The translations under genes and the position numbers were made by a program. From contig DAOOTD010000002.1 in the NCBI GenBank assembly GCA_035390125.1, positions 233,908-297,907 on the forward strand: 64,000 bases of DNA, written 5' to 3'. The notes beneath the pieces are model-generated. The model was not told the origin of the DNA. It was given only the letters and a program-made list of their open reading frames with translations, and did not search any database. This document shows positions 3,190 to 61,322 of this stretch, piece by piece. Positions within the stretch are counted from its first letter, which is position 1. The number at the start of each line of letters is the position of its first letter. Origin of the DNA: Candidatus Moraniibacteriota bacterium. Its GTDB lineage: Bacteria > Patescibacteriota > Minisyncoccia > Moranbacterales > GWC2-37-73.

Positions 3190-5379
3190 ATGAAAAAACA
3201 AAAAAAAGTAAAAAAAACAAAAGAAGCTGAAATAAAGGTGAAAAAAACAAGAGTGAAGAATCAGATCAAGAAAATTGTAAAGCGCAGTGGAACCGTAGTT
3301 TCTTTTGATAAGAAAAAAATCATAATTGCTATAAGTAAAGCTTTTGTCGCAACTGGAGAAGGAAGCGCTAAAGATGCAAAAAAAGTAACAGAAAAAGTTT
3401 TACGGCTTTTAAATAAGAATTACAAAAAAGGTTACATTCCCAGCGTGGAACAAGTGCAGGATGTTATAGAAAGGGTTTTAATGGTTCTTGATTTTGAGGA
3501 AACTGCAAAAGCTTATATCCTTTACCGCGAACAGCACAGAAAAATCCGTGAAACAGAAGAATCTCTAGATGAAGCCGTAAGTTTGGTAGATAAATATATT
3601 CAAGAAATAGACTGGAAAGTCAAAGAAAATGCTAACATGGCTTACTCTCTCCAAGGTCTTAATAATTACATAGCATCCATAGTTAGCAGTAAGTATTGGA
3701 TGAATCGTGTATATACAAAAGAAATAAGAGAAGCACATGAAGGGGGAGATTTCCATATTCATGATCTGCAACTAATCGCGGCTTATTGCTGTGGCTGGGA
3801 CCTTCAAGATCTAATCCGTCGTGGTTTTACGGGTGTTCCAGGTAAAGTAGCCTGTAAACCAGCTAAACATTTTGGTAGTCTCTTGGGACAGATGGTTAAT
3901 TTTATTTATACTCTTCAAGGAGAGGTTGCTGGAGCTCAGGCATTTTCTAATTTTGACACTTTGCTAGCTCCTTTTGTACGTTATGATAAATTGACTTATA
4001 CAGAAGTCAAGCAACAAATACAGTCTTTTGTGTTCAATATGAATGTTTCTACACGCGTTGGTTTTCAAACTCCTTTTTCAAATATAACTATGGATATTAC
4101 GCCTCCAAAAACATTAGCTAAAGAAGCTGTAATTATAGGAGGAGTAGCACAAAAAGAAACTTATGCTGATTTTCAGGAAGAGATGAATATGATTAATCGT
4201 GCTTTTGCGGAAGTTATGACAGAAGGCGATGCCAGTGGCAGAATTTTTACTTTTCCCATCCCGACATATAACATAGGCAAAAATTTTGATTGGAATGATA
4301 ATAGATTTGATGCTATTTGGGAAATGACAGCCAAATATGGAATCCCGTATTTTGCGAATTTCGTAAATTCAGACATGGATCCTGATGATGCGCGTTCAAT
4401 GTGCTGTCGATTAAGATTAGATAACAGAGAGCTTCATAAGCGCGGAGGTGGATTATTCGGTGCTAATCCTCTGACAGGTTCAGTAGGTGTGGTTACTATT
4501 AATATGCCGCGCTTAGGATATCTTTCTAAAAACAAAAAAGAATTTTTCAAAAGACTTGATGATCTTATGGATTTAGCAAAAAACAGTCTGGAAACTAAAA
4601 GAAAGTTAGTCGAGGGCCTGACAGAAAGAGGTTTATATCCATATACCAAGTTTTATCTTGATGCAATAAAAATGCGTCGTGGCCAATATTGGGCTAATCA
4701 CTTTTCTACTATTGGTTTGGTAGGCATGAACGAAGCCCTAATGAATTTGATTGGGAAAGATGTAACAACTAAAGATGGCCAGAAATTAGCTGAAGAAATA
4801 CTTGTGCATATGCGCGAAAGGATTGTTAGCTACCAGGAAGAAACAGGTAATTTATATAATTTAGAAGCAACTCCAGCTGAAGGAACAGCATATCGTTTAG
4901 CACGTATAGACAGAGAAAAATATCCGAAAGTTATTTTCGCTAATAATGATGCTGTTAAAAACAATGGGTTGGAACCTTATTATACAAATTCATCACAGCT
5001 GCCTGTTCAATTTACAAAAGATATTTTCGAAGCTCTTGATCTGCAGGAAAATTTGCAGACAAAATATACAGGAGGAACAGTTTTGCATGGGTTTTTAGGA
5101 GAACGTATTTGGGACATAGGAATGGTAAAAAAACTTGTAAGGAAAATTGCAGAAAACTATGCACTTCCTTACTTTACTTTATCGCCTACTTTCAGCATCT
5201 GTCCGGTACACGGTTACCTTCCAGGAGAACAGCCAATTTGTCCTAAATGCGTGGTTGAACAGAAAACAGAAATTTACTCTAGGGTAGTGGGTTATATCCG
5301 CCCAGTGCAGCAGTGGAATAAGGGTAAACAAGCCGAATTTAAGGATAGGAAAGAATTTATAGTTACAGAAATAAGCTAA
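3190..5379 (+). CDS. nrdD: Anaerobic ribonucleoside-triphosphate reductase (class III RNR)
   Basis: 729 aa. C-terminal Zn ribbon (CPVH...CPKC) followed by the glycyl-radical motif RVVGY. Confidence 0.9.
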   Translation: MKKQKKVKKTKEAEIKVKKTRVKNQIKKIVKRSGTVVSFDKKKIIIAISKAFVATGEGSAKDAKKVTEKVLRLLNKNYKKGYIPSVEQVQDVIERVLMVLDFEETAKAYILYREQHRKIRETEESLDEAVSLVDKYIQEIDWKVKENANMAYSLQGLNNYIASIVSSKYWMNRVYTKEIREAHEGGDFHIHDLQLIAAYCCGWDLQDLIRRGFTGVPGKVACKPAKHFGSLLGQMVNFIYTLQGEVAGAQAFSNFDTLLAPFVRYDKLTYTEVKQQIQSFVFNMNVSTRVGFQTPFSNITMDITPPKTLAKEAVIIGGVAQKETYADFQEEMNMINRAFAEVMTEGDASGRIFTFPIPTYNIGKNFDWNDNRFDAIWEMTAKYGIPYFANFVNSDMDPDDARSMCCRLRLDNRELHKRGGGLFGANPLTGSVGVVTINMPRLGYLSKNKKEFFKRLDDLMDLAKNSLETKRKLVEGLTERGLYPYTKFYLDAIKMRRGQYWANHFSTIGLVGMNEALMNLIGKDVTTKDGQKLAEEILVHMRERIVSYQEETGNLYNLEATPAEGTAYRLARIDREKYPKVIFANNDAVKNNGLEPYYTNSSQLPVQFTKDIFEALDLQENLQTKYTGGTVLHGFLGERIWDIGMVKKLVRKIAENYALPYFTLSPTFSICPVHGYLPGEQPICPKCVVEQKTEIYSRVVGYIRPVQQWNKGKQAEFKDRKEFIVTEIS

Positions 5380-42670: not shown

Positions 42671-42762
42671 TTGTTTTTATGATATAATTTAAGCTAGAAA
42701 ATATTATTTTTTAATAATTTCAATGTAAATTTGTTTTAATAATTTTGCATTGTATTAAAAAA

Positions 42763-45141
42763 ATGAATACAAAAATCAGTTTTGTAACTTTATTTTCAGT
42801 CTTATCACTTGTTCTTGTTTGTGGAATTTTTCTTCCCATAAAAACAGTAAATGCCGCGGTTGGTTCTTTTTCTTGTTCTGATTATCAAACTGCTCCTACT
42901 GGTTCTGGCTTCGGCTATATAACGCTTTGGAATAATAAAATTACAGGAACAATAACCAGTTCTGTTAGTCCAGGAGGAACCGTAACAGTTTATTTGAAAG
43001 ATATATCCTATACGGGTACAGGCTCGCAGGAATGGCATAAACCAGTATATGGCACTATAGGTGGAGTTCAGAGATCTTTTACTGGATCAAACCAAGCAGT
43101 ACCTGGCAGTGGCTATCTTCCTTATTTTGAAAGTACTCAAACTTTTCCTGCTCCCTCTACTCCGGGAACTTATACATTACAATTAACAAGTAGCTGGGAT
43201 GGAAGAAATTTATGTTCCTGTTCTTCCTGCAGTGCTGGTACTTTTACAGTTACTGCTCCTGCCTACTGCACTTTGCCTTGGGGAGGAACAATATCAAACG
43301 GCGCCTCAGTTTATGCTTATTATTATCCTTCAGTTGCCTGTGGCTTAGATTGTGCTAATTACCGTCAGACACGAACTTGCAATAATGGAGTTTTGAGTAA
43401 TTCAAATACTTATCAAAGTTGCTATACACAGGCTTGTGCTTCATGCAGTCTCCCTTGGGGCGGAACCGTGGCTCATGGCGGTTCAGTGACTGCCTACGCT
43501 TCAGGTTCAGTTCCTTGTGGATCATCCTGCACCAGCCAGACTAGAACCTGCAGCAATGGAACACTTAGTGGTTCATATACTAATTCAAGTTGTAGTGTAG
43601 CAGCTTGTGCCTGCAATCTACCCTGGGGAGGCACATTAACTCATGGCGGTTCAGTGACTGCCTACGCTTCAGGTTCAGTTCCTTGTGGATCATCCTGCAC
43701 CAGCCAGACTAGAACCTGCAGCAATGGAACACTTAGTGGTTCATATACTAATTCAAGTTGTAGTGTAGCAGCCTGTGCTTCCTGTACTTCACCCTGGGGC
43801 ACAACTGTAGTTCATGGCAGTTCTATTACTGCTTATCTTTCCAATTCAGCTGCAACATGTACTAGTCAGACAAGGACATGCAACAATGGAACATTAAGTG
43901 GTTCATATATATACCAAACTTGTACACGTTCTTGTACTTTGCCCTGGGGCGGAACAGTGGCTAGCGGTTCTTCTTTTACTGCCTATCAATCAAGTTCAGT
44001 GCCTTATGGGTCATCCTGTGTCAGCCAGACCAGAACCTGTACTGATGGAACATTAAGTGGTTCATACTCTAATCAAACTTGCAATGTAGCAGCCCCAGCT
44101 TCATGCAGTCTCCCTTGGGGCGGAACCGTGGCTCATGGCGGTTCAGTGACTGCCTACGCTTCAGGTTCAGTTCCTTGTGGATCATCCTGCACCAGCCAGA
44201 CTAGAACCTGCAGCAATGGAACACTTAGTGGTTCATATACTAATTCAAGTTGTAGTGTAACACCCTGCCCTTGCACCTTGCCTTGGGGAGGAACCCTAGC
44301 TCACGGAAGCTCAGTAACTGCTTATTTGTCCAGTTCAGCTGTAACCTGCACCAGTCAAACAAGAACATGCAATAATGGAACACTTAGCGGTTCATATACG
44401 TATCAAAGCTGTTTACGCTCATGCGCTATACCTTGGGGCGGAACAGTAGCTAGCGGTTCTTCTTTTACTGCCTATCAATCAAATTCAGTTCCTTGTGGAT
44501 CATCCTGCACCAGCCAGACCAGAACCTGCACTAATGGAACACTAACTGGTTCATATTCCAACAGAACTTGCAGCGTAGCACCTTGTCCTTGTACTTCACC
44601 TTGGGGTACAACCGTGGCTCATGGCAGTTCTATCACTGCCTACTCCTCAAGTTCAGTAGCCTGCGGATCATCCTGTGATAGTGTCAAACAAAATAGAACC
44701 TGCACCAATGGAGTCTTGAGCGGAACAGCCACCAACCAAAACTGCAGCGTAGCACCTTGTCCCTGCACCACGCCTTGGGGCACAACTGTAGCTAGCGGCA
44801 GTTCAGTCGACGCCTATAAAGACAGCTATGCACCTTATGGATCAGAGTGTGTCAAAGAAACTAGACAATGCACGGATGGAAGCTTAAATGGTTCCTATAC
44901 CAACCAGAGCTGCTGTCAGGCAGATAACTGCGAGCAAAGAACCTGCCAAGGCAAGCAATGCAATAATGGCTGCAAGCTTATGGATGGCGTCAAAACTGAC
45001 GGTGCCTGCTGTGTCTCAAATGGTTGTGAAAAAAACACCTGCAAAGGCAAAACTTGCGATAATGGATGTATTTCTAACGCCTATGGAACCAAGAAATGTT
45101 CCGGCCCAGTAGGCCCAGGCATTTGGACGGAGATATATTAA
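42763..45141 (+). CDS. Secreted cysteine-rich tandem-repeat protein (about 10 repeats of about 47-57 aa) with a Cys-rich C-terminal domain
   Basis: Signal peptide MNTKISFVTLFSVLSLVLVCGIFLPIKTVNA. Repeats follow C-x-LPWGGTVAHGGSVTAY-x6-CGSSCTSQTRTC-x-NGTLSGSY-x4-C. The C-terminus is CCQADNCEQRTC...CKGKTCDNGC. Confidence 0.7.
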   Translation: MNTKISFVTLFSVLSLVLVCGIFLPIKTVNAAVGSFSCSDYQTAPTGSGFGYITLWNNKITGTITSSVSPGGTVTVYLKDISYTGTGSQEWHKPVYGTIGGVQRSFTGSNQAVPGSGYLPYFESTQTFPAPSTPGTYTLQLTSSWDGRNLCSCSSCSAGTFTVTAPAYCTLPWGGTISNGASVYAYYYPSVACGLDCANYRQTRTCNNGVLSNSNTYQSCYTQACASCSLPWGGTVAHGGSVTAYASGSVPCGSSCTSQTRTCSNGTLSGSYTNSSCSVAACACNLPWGGTLTHGGSVTAYASGSVPCGSSCTSQTRTCSNGTLSGSYTNSSCSVAACASCTSPWGTTVVHGSSITAYLSNSAATCTSQTRTCNNGTLSGSYIYQTCTRSCTLPWGGTVASGSSFTAYQSSSVPYGSSCVSQTRTCTDGTLSGSYSNQTCNVAAPASCSLPWGGTVAHGGSVTAYASGSVPCGSSCTSQTRTCSNGTLSGSYTNSSCSVTPCPCTLPWGGTLAHGSSVTAYLSSSAVTCTSQTRTCNNGTLSGSYTYQSCLRSCAIPWGGTVASGSSFTAYQSNSVPCGSSCTSQTRTCTNGTLTGSYSNRTCSVAPCPCTSPWGTTVAHGSSITAYSSSSVACGSSCDSVKQNRTCTNGVLSGTATNQNCSVAPCPCTTPWGTTVASGSSVDAYKDSYAPYGSECVKETRQCTDGSLNGSYTNQSCCQADNCEQRTCQGKQCNNGCKLMDGVKTDGACCVSNGCEKNTCKGKTCDNGCISNAYGTKKCSGPVGPGIWTEIY
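43260..44890 (+). repeat. Coding tandem repeat array with nucleotide-identical blocks
   Basis: Blocks of about 130-160 nt occur at about 43441-43600, 43630-43760 and 44101-44260 and read identical or near-identical. Confidence 0.8.
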
Positions 45142-46433: not shown

Positions 46434-46585
46434 GATATTTGGAAAATTTAATATAGTAAGTCCGCAGACAATGGGAGGCTGTAAAAAAGCGTAATACCCA
46501 TCGAGGAATATCAGAAACATTTTAATGTTTTTGGTAACAAAGGTCGATCTGTGGAAACGCAGATTTTTTAATTGCAAATAATATC
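46434..46585 (+). promoter_or_regulatory. L10 leader region with intrinsic attenuator hairpin (46547..46572)
   Basis: AUCUGUG-GAAA-CGCAGAU followed by UUUUUU immediately upstream of the rplJ start; about 150 nt leader. Confidence 0.4.
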
Positions 46586-58424: not shown

Positions 58425-59909
58425 TTATAGATAGTATCTGAAAATTATATTGTTAAAAATTATATATAGCATGAATGTCATCATCAGAACCAGGCCAATA
58501 ATAAGAGAATATTCAAAATATTTTTGTCCATTAGAGGCTGATCCGTCTCGGGCGAATATTTTCTCCAGAAGAATTCCAAGTCCAGTGAAAACTAAAATAA
58601 TATGCGAGGTCAGATTCGGGATGAAATATCTTCCGGGAGTTCCAGTTTCAATGTGGCCATCATTATTATGAAAAAACATCCAATCGGCAAATCTTATTCC
58701 AAGCTGAAGCAATGCGAGCATTATTAAGAGAAAAACAATGTATTTTTTTTCAGGCAGATGTGAAAACTTTTTTTTCGAAAAGATAAAAAATGCAATTCCG
58801 ACAGCCGCAATAGCCTGGATAAGCCAGATTATATTGGTTCCATTACTGATACCCCAATTTTTTGTCCATGACAACATGCCCCAATAAGTCCTTGATGACA
58901 AGCCAAATCTGCCTATGGTAAGAGTTTTTGACAAATAATCCTTTACAGAAATAAATAGGTTGCAAATATTGGATATATTGTCAGGAAGATATTTTTTAAA
59001 ATAAATCAGAAGAGAAGCTGTTATGCAGGCAAAAATAAAAAGTGCGATATATTTTATTTTTCTGTTTTTATTCTTTACTTTTTCGTATAAAAAATACATA
59101 AACAACAGGGCAGCTCCTATCAAAAGAACAGATGCGGTCGGTTTAGTCAAAATTCCCAAAAAAACCGAAACAATAATCAGGAAAATATTTTTCCAATTCG
59201 GTCCGTTTTTCAGAGCCAAGATGCCTCCGAGTGTAAAAAGTGCAAACGTCAAAATCAGCAAAGCATCAGAATTTATGGTTGCATAATAGATCGAAAATCT
59301 TGGCTGGAAAGAAACAATAGCTGTCAAAAGCAAACTGTTTTTTGCGGAAAAACCGATATTTTTCGCAATTAAATAAGAAAATAAAATAAAAAGTGTTCCC
59401 AAAAAAACTGAAAAAATTCTAATCAGGTAATAACGGACAAGAATATTTTGATTGCCGAAACTTTTTTCTATGACGGTCAACAGGTTATGATATATTGATT
59501 TTTTGCCTACTTTGTTTGGAGGATAATATTCATTGTATTGATGCCAATCATTATTGATTATCTTATATTCATTTTTTCCATCATGGCCTTGGATAAAAGA
59601 AAAGGTATTGTAAAGATATTCAGTTGCATTGTCATAATCGATAGCCTTAGCTGTTTCTAATACTTCCTGAGAATAATTAAATTTTTGGATTGAATTTTTG
59701 TCTTCTACTTTTCTTTCAACAATAGGCCAAGTTACAGGTCGCTGTTCTGATAGATACTGGATGCTACTGTAATGCCTGGCTTCGTCTTGACCAACAAAAA
59801 TAGGCGTTATGGATGCCAAAAAAACACCTTTCAGAAAAAAGATAGTCAAAATAAGCGCTAAAATAGAAACTGGTTTCTTGAAAAAGGCAAAAAATTGAAA
59901 TTTTTCCAT
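58425..59909 (-). CDS. GT-C fold membrane glycosyltransferase (ArnT/PMT-like, GT39/GT83-type)
   Basis: Polytopic protein. The first extracytoplasmic loop carries the VGQDEARHY DE motif typical of GT-C enzymes. Confidence 0.55.
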   Translation of the reverse strand: MEKFQFFAFFKKPVSILALILTIFFLKGVFLASITPIFVGQDEARHYSSIQYLSEQRPVTWPIVERKVEDKNSIQKFNYSQEVLETAKAIDYDNATEYLYNTFSFIQGHDGKNEYKIINNDWHQYNEYYPPNKVGKKSIYHNLLTVIEKSFGNQNILVRYYLIRIFSVFLGTLFILFSYLIAKNIGFSAKNSLLLTAIVSFQPRFSIYYATINSDALLILTFALFTLGGILALKNGPNWKNIFLIIVSVFLGILTKPTASVLLIGAALLFMYFLYEKVKNKNRKIKYIALFIFACITASLLIYFKKYLPDNISNICNLFISVKDYLSKTLTIGRFGLSSRTYWGMLSWTKNWGISNGTNIIWLIQAIAAVGIAFFIFSKKKFSHLPEKKYIVFLLIMLALLQLGIRFADWMFFHNNDGHIETGTPGRYFIPNLTSHIILVFTGLGILLEKIFARDGSASNGQKYFEYSLIIGLVLMMTFMLYIIFNNIIFRYYL

Positions 59910-60005
59910 AACTAAAGTATACTTTAACTATTATCATAAGGCAATAAAAATGGCTATATATTCCATAAAATAATTGAATTTTAATCTTTTAACTTTAAAT
60001 ATTTT

Positions 60006-60065
60006 ATGAAAATTCTCGTAACCGGTGGTGCCGGCTTTACCCGCCCGCATCGCCAGCGAGCATAG
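60006..60065 (+). pseudogene. Orphan 5' fragment of an NAD-dependent epimerase gene (MKILVTGGAGF then out of family)
   Basis: ATGAAAATTCTCGTAACCGGTGGTGCCGGCTTT encodes the Rossmann N-terminus with GC-richer codons than the intact paralog at 60366. It breaks after GGAGF into GC-rich sequence, with a stop at 60063. Confidence 0.5.
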
Positions 60066-60329
60066 AAATGATATGTATTACACATATATTCTAGAAAGTA
60101 GCAAGGATAAAAACCTGTATATAGGATGGACGAATGATTTAAAAAAACGTTTCGAAAAGCATAATGCAGGAAAAGTTTTTTCAACAAAAATAAGAAGGCC
60201 ATTTGAATTAATATATTACGAGGCTTGTCTATCCAAGGAGGCTGCAATAAAAAGAGAAAAATATTTTAAAACAGGTTTTGGTCGTAGATTCTTAAAGAAT
60301 AGACTTGCTGGCTCGCGTGGCGGGCGGGT
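60039..60329. mobile_element. GIY-YIG cassette bounded by GC-rich inverted ends (ACCCGCCCG ... CGGGCGGGT)
   Basis: 9-bp perfect inverted repeat at 60039-60047 and 60321-60329, plus about 22 bp of GC-rich flanks that are atypical of the AT-rich surroundings. Confidence 0.35.
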
Positions 60330-60345
60330 AGGATCTAATATTTAA
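60073..60345 (+). CDS. GIY-YIG nuclease family protein (YhbQ/UPF0213-like)
   Basis: YYTYILES...KNLYIGWTNDLKKRFEKHN GIY-YIG motif. Confidence 0.8.
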   Translation: MYYTYILESSKDKNLYIGWTNDLKKRFEKHNAGKVFSTKIRRPFELIYYEACLSKEAAIKREKYFKTGFGRRFLKNRLAGSRGGRVGSNI

Positions 60346-60365
60346 AAAACTAAATTTTAAAAAAT

Positions 60366-61322
60366 ATGAAAGTATTGATAACAGGAGGAGCTGGCTTTAT
60401 CGGTTCTCATATAACTAAAAAACTGCTCAAAAGAGGCGACAGCGTTGTTTGCATTGATAATTTCAATGATTATTATTCTCCGGACATAAAAGAAAGGAAT
60501 GTCGAACCCTTTTTGGAAAATCCCAATTATAAGCTATATCGTGGTGATATTGCGGATTATGAAATGATGAAAAACATTTTCGAATCGGAAAAAATTGAAA
60601 GAGTTTGCCACTGTGCCGCCAGAGCCGGCGTGCGGGCCAGCATTGAAAACCCCTTTATTTATGAAGAAACTAATGTGAAAGGAACCCTTAATCTGCTTCA
60701 TTTGTCAAAAGAATTTAAAATTGAAAATTTTGTTCTATTCAGCACTTCTTCGGTGTATGGTGAAACAGAAAAGATACCATTTTCTGAAAAAGATGAAGTT
60801 AATCCAATTGCTCCTTATTCCGCGACCAAAATGGCGACCGAAATTTTAGGAAAAGTTTACCATCATGTGCACGGACTTAATGTTAATGTGATTCGTCCCT
60901 TTAATGTCTATGGCCCAAGTGGAAGACCGGATATGATTCCTTTCAAATTTACGCGCCTTATTGACGAGGGTGGGGAAATCACCAAATTCGGCGATGGAAC
61001 AATGAAACGTGATCACACTTATATCGATGATTTTGTGGAAGGAACTGTTTCGGCCATAGATAAAATTTTCGGTTTTGAAGTTTTTAATCTCGGAAATTCC
61101 AATCCGGTGGAGCTTAATCATTTCATAGAAGTAGTGGAAAATCTTCTAAGGAAAAAAGCGAAAATAAAAAATGTTCCAACTCCTTCGACAGAACTGCCGA
61201 TAACCTATGCCGATGTTTCCAAAGCCAAGGAAATGCTGGGCTATGAACCGAAAGTAAAAATTGAAGAAGGAATGAAAAGATTCGTGGAATGGTATCAGGA
61301 AAATAAAAAATTATACAAATAA
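60366..61322 (+). CDS. NAD-dependent nucleotide-sugar epimerase/dehydratase (extended SDR)
   Basis: TGGAGFIGSH Rossmann motif; YSATK catalytic YxxxK. Confidence 0.85.
   Translation: MKVLITGGAGFIGSHITKKLLKRGDSVVCIDNFNDYYSPDIKERNVEPFLENPNYKLYRGDIADYEMMKNIFESEKIERVCHCAARAGVRASIENPFIYEETNVKGTLNLLHLSKEFKIENFVLFSTSSVYGETEKIPFSEKDEVNPIAPYSATKMATEILGKVYHHVHGLNVNVIRPFNVYGPSGRPDMIPFKFTRLIDEGGEITKFGDGTMKRDHTYIDDFVEGTVSAIDKIFGFEVFNLGNSNPVELNHFIEVVENLLRKKAKIKNVPTPSTELPITYADVSKAKEMLGYEPKVKIEEGMKRFVEWYQENKKLYK

Follow-up and report, generated by a model that had tools for sequence, protein, structure and literature searches.

The closest described analogues of the element reported here are the mobile open reading frames (mORFs) of fungal mitochondria, found in atp6 of Allomyces macrogynus and in atp6, atp9, cox2 and nad3 of Glomus (PMC3630166). 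Each is a free-standing endonuclease open reading frame (ORF; of the GIY-YIG type in atp9) that lies inside a conserved gene and brings a foreign gene terminus with it, producing 'gene hybrids' in which the foreign C-terminus keeps the gene functional and the native terminus is left nearby as a remnant (PMC3630166). Here we examine a small GIY-YIG nuclease gene that lies at the start of an epimerase gene in a 64,000-nt stretch of DNA from a Candidatus Moraniibacteriota bacterium (contig DAOOTD010000002.1, positions 233,908 to 297,907; the whole stretch is called the window, and its own numbering is used throughout). The reading that we favor, at a probability of roughly 0.6, is that a selfish, hairpin-bounded GIY-YIG element of 289 nt entered the original 5' end of the epimerase gene, and that the gene was regenerated by a 70-nt tail that the element carried.

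The likeness to the fungal mORFs lies in a duplicated gene terminus, with an apparently native orphan copy and an element-linked copy that is in frame with the gene, and in an ORF that is often in phase with the host gene (PMC3630166). The fungal elements replace the 3' (C-terminal) end of their targets, whereas the window element would replace the 5' end together with the start codon. They are also mitochondrial and encode full-size endonucleases, whereas here we find a core of 78-90 amino acids combined with a GC-rich hairpin on Patescibacteria chromosomes, and the main targets of this family are tRNA genes, unlike those of the mORFs.

Phage T4 Seg proteins, such as SegB in a tRNA gene cluster, are likewise encoded by intron-less endonuclease genes beside conserved genes, including tRNA genes, and the Seg genes gain an advantage in inheritance because the allele without the endonuclease is cleaved and its flanks are co-converted (PMC2330249). 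However, Seg proteins have DNA-binding domains, and their targets are unsplit, with no hairpin and no target fragment; the window element, for its part, is known from its sequence alone. Integrative elements of tRNA genes carry a replacement gene end in attP; the target is regenerated, and a partial copy of it flanks the insert. These elements use tyrosine or serine recombinases, replace the 3' end of the gene and are kilobases long, whereas the window element has no recombinase and would replace a 5' end. Short GC-rich hairpin repeats have spread in AT-rich genomes as the GC clusters of yeast mitochondria (PMC4478555) and the hairpin elements of sponges (PMC2800124), and as those accounts describe them they enter genes and one another, like the hairpins described below. 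As far as the same accounts go, these repeats have no defined conserved-gene targets, unlike the elements here. We know of no nuclease gene dedicated to them.

In the candidate phyla radiation (CPR), GIY-YIG ORFs have been reported in insertions in rRNA genes that are neither group I nor group II introns and are scattered over several sites (10.1101/2024.02.27.582315). As far as the main text of that report goes, those insertions have the same phylum-level host range as the present family but concern rRNA genes only; a term search of the main text found no mention of hairpins or tRNA, with targets of the short-chain dehydrogenase/reductase (SDR) family and target duplication lying outside that search. 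Our wider literature search, which covered subscription journals poorly and may have missed a prior description, found no account of tRNA, SDR or transfer-messenger RNA (tmRNA) targeting by such elements or of a regenerating 5' duplication.

Anatomy of the locus

The window is 34% GC, and its nearest relatives are metagenome assemblies of Patescibacteria. Our comparisons use 80 loci from species-representative genomes and 80 from metagenomes, of which 149 have the ORF (L numbers below); the metagenome scan gave mostly general family members (best 78%), and the closest relatives were taken individually. The features of the window locus are:

59895..59923, + strand: promoter-like site TTGAAA-17-TATACT, 10/12 matches in a consensus scan, in the native intergenic region between a PMT-like gene and the epimerase gene
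60006..60038, + strand: orphan 5' fragment, MKILVTGGAGF, 11 codons; 29/33 identity to the 5' end of the element-free gene at L085, peptide equal to the orthologue consensus
60006..60065, + strand: leader ORF, MKILVTGGAGFTRPHRQRA and a stop, 19 codons; the orphan start running on into the 5' arm
60040..60061, + strand: 5' arm of the hairpin and left element end, CCCGCCCGCATCGCCAGCGAGC, 22 nt, GC-rich, inverted repeat
60073..60345, + strand: GIY-YIG nuclease ORF, 90 amino acids; catalytic core at 60076-60306, last 13 codons from the 3' arm and the 3' target fragment
60307..60328, + strand: 3' arm of the hairpin and right element end, GCTGGCTCGCGTGGCGGGCGGG, 22 nt, GC-rich, pairing with the 5' arm
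60329..60365, + strand: 37-nt segment made up of the 3' target fragment and an AT-rich spacer that extends to the new start codon
60366..60398, + strand: replacement 5' end of the epimerase gene, MKVLITGGAGF, which probably arrived with the element
60366..61322, + strand: intact SDR gene resembling UDP-glucuronate 4-epimerase, starting MKVLITGGAGFIGSH

The epimerase gene matches the Pfam families Epimerase (1.1e-56) and GDP_Man_Dehyd (1.3e-60), and its homologues are named UDP-glucuronate 4-epimerase by JGI. Upstream of it, the orphan fragment together with A60039 ends with the first base of an Ile codon, and directly after this TTT-A the character of the sequence switches abruptly into the 5' arm. 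The insertion point lies between bases 1 and 2 of this Ile codon, in the motif GGAGF/IGS (slashes in motifs mark insertion points). The insert, 60040-60328, consists of the GIY-YIG ORF between the two GC-rich arms. When it is removed in silico, the sequence reads ATG...GGC TTT ATA GGA TCT AAT ATT TAA, encoding MKILVTGGAGFIGSNI and a stop (MKILVTGGAGF-IGSNI-stop); the part from ATA onward, which begins with A60039, is the 3' target fragment, five SDR codons (IGSNI) and a stop codon. Because the deletion joins MKILVTGGAGF to IGSNI, the insert interrupts a short copy of the SDR Rossmann motif and has one side of the motif before it and the other behind it.

The 23-mers containing the arms are ACCCGCCCGCATCGCCAGCGAGC (60039-60061) and GCTGGCTCGCGTGGCGGGCGGGT (60307-60329). 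They belong to an inverted repeat of 25 nt (60038-62 and 60306-30) that is 84% complementary and includes a perfect 9-bp repeat, and the arms are paired in the minimum-free-energy RNA fold of 60030-60340 (z = -4.47). Two matched GC-rich arms are not explicable by chance, because the 23-mer is present once in the window where 0 occurrences are expected, and a second arm with the exact sequence CGGGCGGGT (P = 3.5e-7 per position at 34% GC) has an expectation of only 1.4e-4 within 400 nt. We found no further copies of the arms or of the nuclease elsewhere in the window, no tRNA remnants in the arms (ARAGORN gave none near the locus), and nothing relevant in Rfam at E <= 10 for the locus or at the gathering threshold for the whole window. 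A first-pass annotation, made from the sequence without database searches, had described a GIY-YIG cassette with GC-rich inverted ends beside an orphan epimerase fragment. All of the features that it described are present with small corrections of their coordinates (fragment 60006-60038, arms 60039-60061 and 60307-60329, ORF 60073-60345), including the GC-rich ends and the perfect 9-bp inverted repeat.

Which of the two gene starts is native

The same annotation took the orphan fragment to be foreign DNA imported with the element, on the ground that it is GC-richer than the gene start. Numerically this is so (0.485 against 0.394 in the gene's first 33 nt; GC at third codon positions, GC3, 0.455 against 0.273), but the difference amounts to about 3 bases and cannot carry an inference of import. 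We conclude that the orphan's role is probably the reverse: it appears to be the epimerase gene's original start, and the 3' fragment, the spacer and the present start appear to have come with the element. Our grounds are the intergenic context, the starts of the orthologues, the codons, the pattern of differences from L085, a constant distance within the tail, and a contig end at L085.

The orphan lies directly behind a native intergenic region that adjoins the divergent PMT-like gene. This PMT-epimerase intergenic region is homologous to those at two loci whose epimerases are 84% (L087) and 97.5% (L085) identical to that of the window, and at both of them the epimerase gene begins at that intergenic position, without an element. 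Nearly all orthologues start with MKILVTGGAGF, like the orphan, whereas the present gene starts with MKVLITGGAGF. The present gene differs from that of L085 at 56/957 positions overall; 7 of these lie within the first 27 nt, and the 50 nt that follow are free of differences. Its start is less similar to that of L085 (26/33 identical) than the orphan is (29/33). The orphan's codons ACC GGT GGT GCC GGC correspond to ACT GGT GGT GCC GGC in L085, and the gene body uses GCC 7 times and GCT once. These points of context, identity and codon usage tell against import of the orphan.

The tail, conversely, has the features of a unit that travels with the element. The distance from the 3' end of the hairpin to the second GF/I boundary is 69-71 nt in 9 of 10 SDR loci, though the positions of the start codons vary. 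The spacer is 73-82% identical among the window, L171, L172, L173 and L004, and the window's 3' fragment is 16/18 identical to that of L171 as against 11/18 to its own gene. The present start, ATGAAAGTA..ATAACAGGAGGAGCTGG, recurs behind related elements in L172, L002, L004 and L173. The first 245 nt of L085 (1-245), a contig end before an N10 gap, are near-identical to window 59800-60038, with three visible differences in about 245 nt, and run on as ...GGTGCCGGGTTT/ATCGGTTCTC without the element, which suggests a candidate empty or revertant allele; the candidate junction expected for an empty or excised allele is orphan/ATCGGTTCTCATATAACT. The SDR site sequences are ACCGGTGGTGCCGGCTTTATCGGTTCT for the orphan type and ACAGGAGGAGCTGGCTTTATCGGTTCT for the present gene, and our interpretation implies that the ancestral start was probably of the orphan type and not ATGAAAGTATTGATAACAGGAGGAGCT. 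After its gap, L085 continues with a diverged second copy of the PMT start and intergenic region and then the 97.5% identical epimerase; it is probably two strain variants joined by scaffolding.

Two tRNA loci (L021 and L054) have a resident tRNA gene split at the D-loop. The order in both is resident 5' part, hairpin, short 3' fragment, ORF, complete tRNA, partial 5' fragment, second hairpin, and resident 3' part. The acceptor stem of the complete tRNA differs from the resident's, and the 3' strand of the resident acceptor is perfectly complementary to the orphan far upstream (L021, GCCGGAA/TTCCGGC; L054, GCATCCG/CGGATGC). At these loci, judging from the pairing, the orphan is a remnant of the resident gene and the intact tRNA is the import, and a recent state seems to have been kept.

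Site recurrence and element-free loci

An identical 5' arm and a nuclease core that is 84-91% identical to the window's stand at the same codon boundary before the SDR genes of L172, L173 and L171. These genes are 49%, 51% and 34% identical to the window epimerase, respectively (the one at L171 is RmlB-like), and their upstream neighbors differ from the window's. A 91%-identical core is also found at an unrelated site, the 3' end of an unrelated glycosyltransferase gene (L170). In total, about 13 of the surveyed loci are SDR genes cut at the same GF/IG boundary, the recurrent insertion at one site that is typical of a free-standing homing endonuclease gene, and the PMT-epimerase loci of L085 and L087 supply the corresponding element-free state. 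The proposal of the first-pass annotation that this is a homing-type cassette specific for the GGAGF/IGS-coding site is therefore upheld to the extent that the same lineage occupies the same boundary in SDR genes of 34-51% identity, and the searches that it recommended, for GIY-YIG genes with GC-rich ends in other epimerase genes and for empty sites, produced both.

Within the species, the element is present in all 13 contigs. There is no same-species empty site among the contigs encoding an identical epimerase, all of which carry the element, so it is fixed in the sampled population. In L086 (2005-2373), L088 (787-1152) and L089 (2-289), whose epimerases are 83-84% identical to the window's, the orthologous slot contains instead a 23S_rRNA_IVP gene (PF05635), a small gene family of rRNA intervening sequences; we saw no GC hairpin beside it.

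A family of hairpin-associated nuclease genes

In nearly all of the surveyed loci a conserved GC-rich hairpin, CCCGCCCGC...GCGGGCGGG, is found with the nuclease gene; the ends of this hairpin are kept family-wide as terminal inverted repeats like the 25-nt repeat of the window. There are three layouts: the hairpin is 5' of the ORF, or it holds the ORF in its loop (as in the window), or it is 3' of the ORF and abuts the 5' end of a tRNA. An intact tRNA gene is located on the same strand within 160 nt downstream in 92 of the 149 loci with the ORF, and at least 13 anticodons are represented. Further targets, besides the SDR genes, are tmRNA, a GT4 glycosyltransferase gene, MazE/AbrB-type genes, and GxxExxY (PD-(D/E)XK) genes at two sites. 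Removal of the hairpin-bounded unit restores the reading frame or the RNA sequence in every target examined. In the tRNA, SDR and GT4 targets, the hairpin sits within an incomplete copy of the target's 5' part, behind which comes the intact gene; when the hairpin flanks are joined, they match the 5' end of the downstream gene at 32/32 positions in L018, 34/34 in L036, 33/33 in L077, 43/46 in L001, 34/37 in L009, 31/33 in L037 and 33/45 in the window. We rejected a fixed-length target-site duplication of 70 nt, because the resemblance to the downstream copy is confined to the 27-33 nt that immediately precede the hairpin. The MazE/AbrB and GxxExxY families are presumably dispensable and multi-copy, and insertions in them have no duplication.

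Several individual loci are of interest. GxxExxY genes (TIGR04256/PDDEXK_3) are split by an ORF-in-hairpin unit at two conserved positions, EIIV/EIKA in L135, L136, L155 and L156 and just before GPGLLES in L106 and L169, with no duplication and with open, conserved frames in both halves. In L090 (2501-2786) the element interrupts the GT4 glycosyltransferase gene near its 5' end, and 51 nt of the gene start are duplicated (MKKILIFSTAYLPLVGG / MKKILIFSTAYLPMIGGAE...), an architecture like that at SDR genes but in a different protein motif. Beside tmRNA the same nuclease occurs with a longer hairpin (79-113 nt) abutting the tmRNA 5' end, in L015 (3031-3109, tmRNA from 3107), where the hairpin directly follows the apparent end of smpB, and in L028 (4294-4406, tmRNA 4404-4749). 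L042 (~4378-4470) and L111 (~2878-2970) have a hairpin-bearing partial copy of tRNA-Thr with a second GC-rich insertion of about 43 nt in the anticodon loop (CCCCGCCTGAAAGGACGGGGTCCCGTCCAGTGAAACTGGCGGG), followed by a GIY-YIG gene of another subfamily (MYYVYILQSTVTDRYYVGHT...).

Hairpins are also present alone, in tandem, or nested in each other (L027, L035, L054, L140 and L156). Since some of them are inserted into other hairpins or form exact tandem pairs (L027 3857-3911, L054 3912-3987, L140 1403-1806 and L156 166-526), it appears that insertion favors the hairpin itself, or else that the hairpin can move independently. It occurs in both orientations relative to the ORF (27 vs 29), and its ends are invariant in sequence. 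No covariation was found in the outer stem, which, being invariant, is uninformative for or against a selected structure. There is no target-site duplication of fixed length, as excision of the unit leaves no duplicated bases beyond an ambiguity of 1-3 G/C, and we saw no insertion motif common to the targets.

The nuclease and the arms

Pfam PF01541 matches residues 17-86 of the 106-amino-acid ORF (66.5 bits, E = 2.6e-18; the cut-off is 22.6 bits). A GTG at 60025 is another point from which the frame is open. The closest solved structures are the UPF0213 proteins BH0048 (1zg2_A, E = 5.9e-8) and EF2693 (1ywl_A, E = 0.004), and the 78-amino-acid core of most relatives places them with single-domain UPF0213/YhbQ-like proteins of about 80-100 amino acids. 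Y21, G34, R42, H46, Y64, E66, R77 and E78 are invariant in 51 homologues and all present in the window copy; the Tyr residues of GIY and YIG and the conserved Arg, His and Glu are presumably catalytic, as in the GIY-YIG family generally. The Pfam domain spans the whole conserved core, with no separate DNA-binding module such as I-TevI and the Seg proteins have. By these comparisons the element belongs to a UPF0213-like minimal branch of the GIY-YIG superfamily, and in its site recurrence and its presence and absence it seems to behave like a free-standing homing endonuclease gene.

It does not resemble a group I or II intron or an intein: Rfam gave no match at E <= 10 beyond noise and none at the gathering threshold, and the best NCBIfam match, a group I intron endonuclease, scores 23.3 bits, far under the 56-bit cut-off. 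Apart from 16 nt at its 5' side and 22 nt at its 3' side, the 289-nt insert is taken up by the ORF, and the host frame stops inside the insert.

The terminal extensions of the GIY-YIG proteins are translated hairpin arms and target fragments. A protein search retrieved 991 relatives at E <= 1e-5 (60-99% identical), many of which start with xxLVTGGAGF-TRPHRQRA- and end with -LAGSRGGRVGSNxx; these termini are translations of the SDR fragment, of both arms and of the 3' fragment. Among the 120 best homologues, 27 have the xxLVTGGAGF-TRPHRQRA N-terminus in frame, so that the leader is fused to the nuclease, and 52 read through the 3' arm.

Between the window nuclease and its relatives dN/dS is 0.03-0.09, with dS saturated at 1.5-1.9, which points to an old and strongly constrained protein. 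We considered whether the high conservation of the element, above that of the host gene, is a sign of recent transfer, and rejected this: because dS between the elements is saturated, the conservation stems from constraint and protein identity is no evidence of recent transfer. The 5' arm is identical in 9 related loci although the synonymous sites of the adjoining ORF are saturated, and for this reason we regard the arms as a selected cis-element.

Proposed mechanism and alternative explanations

Under the interpretation that we favor, the element would sit in the Ile codon of GGAGF/IGS, with the original start at 60006-60038 left as an orphan. The carried 70-nt tail (short 3' target fragment, spacer, and new ATG with 11 codons) would be fused in frame to the resident gene body, and the epimerase gene, the putative target, would in this way be regenerated and functional from a replacement start. 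The site at 59895..59923 may be the promoter from which the orphan leader, the GIY-YIG ORF and the epimerase gene are all transcribed, and the scan found no terminator-like site up to 60450. The host gene's promoter and native ATG would drive the 19-codon leader, whose TAG stop (60063-65) is separated from the nuclease ATG by 7 nt; the nuclease would then be translated by reinitiation or translational coupling, and the epimerase from the imported start. Spread would probably occur via double-strand-break repair, in which a break in a naive SDR gene near GF/IG is repaired from the donor: the left end would pair with the orphan there, and the right end with the gene body. Copying would move the element and its 70-nt tail, and the new orphan would be the recipient's own start. 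Since all SDR genes share homology with the orphan on their left side and with the gene body on their right, the transfer would not kill its target. The proposal has direct support in the anatomy, the recurrence at the same site in non-orthologous SDR genes, the element-free orthologues, and the tRNA structures with split resident and imported genes; from these we infer nuclease activity, a recognized feature (the target sequence or the element's own hairpin), and the repair pathway.

A number of observations weigh against this interpretation. The candidate empty allele in L085 lies beside an N10 scaffold gap and has 3x coverage. At L001, L009 and L172 there is hardly any difference between the orphan and the 5' part downstream, so local duplication or later gene conversion fits equally well there, and the cluster of 5' differences between the window gene and L085 is not the only cluster in the gene. 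Identity between elements is not significantly correlated with identity of the spacer or of the 5' part (Spearman rho about 0.22-0.23, 45 locus pairs), a test of co-inheritance that is weak because the segments are short and AT-rich. No recent donor of the window element is known, because dS between it and the nearest relatives in the sample is saturated. Specific recognition of many targets by near-identical proteins is hard to picture when each is a bare catalytic core of about 78 amino acids without a DNA-binding domain. Cleavage and mobility, for their part, are deduced from sequence.

The last two points bear on the insertion chemistry, for which a hairpin-directed, structure-specific mechanism is a serious rival even though we think it unlikely. 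The hairpin would then be a palindromic transposable unit, similar to a miniature inverted-repeat transposable element, with the GIY-YIG protein as its structure-specific nuclease or transposase, and the regenerating copies would be survivors in essential genes. What makes it serious is that the protein is a bare core related to UPF0213 and that the hairpins are found alone, in tandem and nested, in both orientations and with invariant ends; the duplication-free simple insertions in MazE/AbrB and GxxExxY genes fit it too. Conversely, there is neither a target-site duplication nor a common insertion motif, and insertion at identical positions in conserved motifs is more typical of homology-dependent homing. 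We know of no GIY-YIG transposase of this kind. The rival differs from the interpretation that we favor in insertion chemistry only, and our reading of the window's anatomy would be unchanged. It is considerably less probable that a homing element brought the orphan MKILVTGGAGF as a co-converted donor exon and that the downstream gene, start included, is wholly resident. The orphan's higher GC content agrees with this, and the orphans of the window, L002 and L001 share unusual CTC, ACC and GCC codons, as might result from a common donor or a preferred target. But the orphan is contiguous with the native intergenic region and matches the codons of L085 and of the gene body; the orphan N-termini vary by locus and track the local gene (GGTGF in L009, GGAGY in L002, SGGF in L006); and the pairing partner of the orphan at L021 and L054 is the 3' half of the resident gene.

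We give little credence to the idea that the insert is an intervening sequence removed at the RNA level, by splicing or by RNase III acting on the GC stem as in rRNA, so that the orphan is an expressed part of the gene. The arms do pair in the predicted fold, excision of the insert restores a frame in every target examined, and GIY-YIG ORFs occur in CPR rRNA insertions other than group I or II introns, as the main text of the report on them describes (10.1101/2024.02.27.582315). However, removal at the RNA level would rescue nothing in the window, because the restored frame stops after 16 codons (IGSNI-stop), and no intron or ribozyme match was found in Rfam with the thresholds given above; the hairpin's occurrence in both orientations and the absence of covariation in its outer stem also speak against it. 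Processing at the stem that separates off the nuclease mRNA is possible as a side feature. Hardly credible, finally, is that this is an ordinary YhbQ/UPF0213-type housekeeping gene in conserved synteny with coincidentally GC-rich flanks, the outcome that the first-pass annotation had named as fatal to its proposal. The similarity to UPF0213, the low dN/dS and the presence of the gene in all same-species contigs would agree with it, but L087 and L085 lack the gene in the orthologous slot, which in L086 and L088 holds the 23S_rRNA_IVP gene instead, and elsewhere in the family many unrelated targets carry always the same hairpin with target fragments. Conserved synteny without empty sites or target specificity was looked for and is not what we see, because the same element stands before non-orthologous SDR genes elsewhere and orthologous loci lack it.

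If our interpretation of the window is right, a selfish element needs neither an intron nor an intein to live in essential genes, because it supplies a copy of whatever part it destroys. Replacement of gene ends has so far been documented mainly for the 3' ends of fungal mitochondrial genes (PMC3630166). Our interpretation would also explain a recurrent oddity of annotation in Patescibacteria, where genes called 'GIY-YIG nuclease family protein' have N-termini like those of SDR proteins and where incomplete tRNA genes lie next to intact ones. Horizontal replacement may then affect the first codons of some genes and certain tRNA genes in their entirety, which bears on phylogeny and on tRNA gene calling.

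More tentatively, at less than even odds, we suggest that the surveyed loci represent a so far undescribed class of bacterial selfish elements in which a bare GIY-YIG core and a conserved GC-rich hairpin invade the 5' regions of essential conserved genes across the CPR, and which would spare the host by carrying a replacement 5' end or a whole tRNA. Target choice would perhaps be by carried homology or by hairpin recognition and not by a protein that reads sequence, and the targets may include tRNAs of at least 13 anticodons, tmRNA, SDR epimerases and GT4 transferases. If there is such a class, tRNA and gene-start sequences have been partly overwritten, repeatedly, by horizontally moving DNA, and experts on mobile DNA and on CPR genomics would be surprised by this picture of the family as a whole. 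A minimal nuclease with a defined hairpin would also be a tractable system for studying site-specific spread by a catalytic core alone.

Other features of the window

An ORF of 798 amino acids at 42745-45141 (+) has a signal-like N-terminus and about 14 cysteine-rich repeats of about 56 amino acids, with the pattern ...C.LPWGGTV.HGSSVTAY...CTSQTRTC.NGTLSGSY.... Two duplicated GC-rich 25-mers, at 43457 and 44117, are accounted for by their location within this repeat ORF. At 46444-46578 (+) there is an Rfam match to the ribosomal protein L10 leader, with 47.9 bits, slightly over the gathering score of 44.

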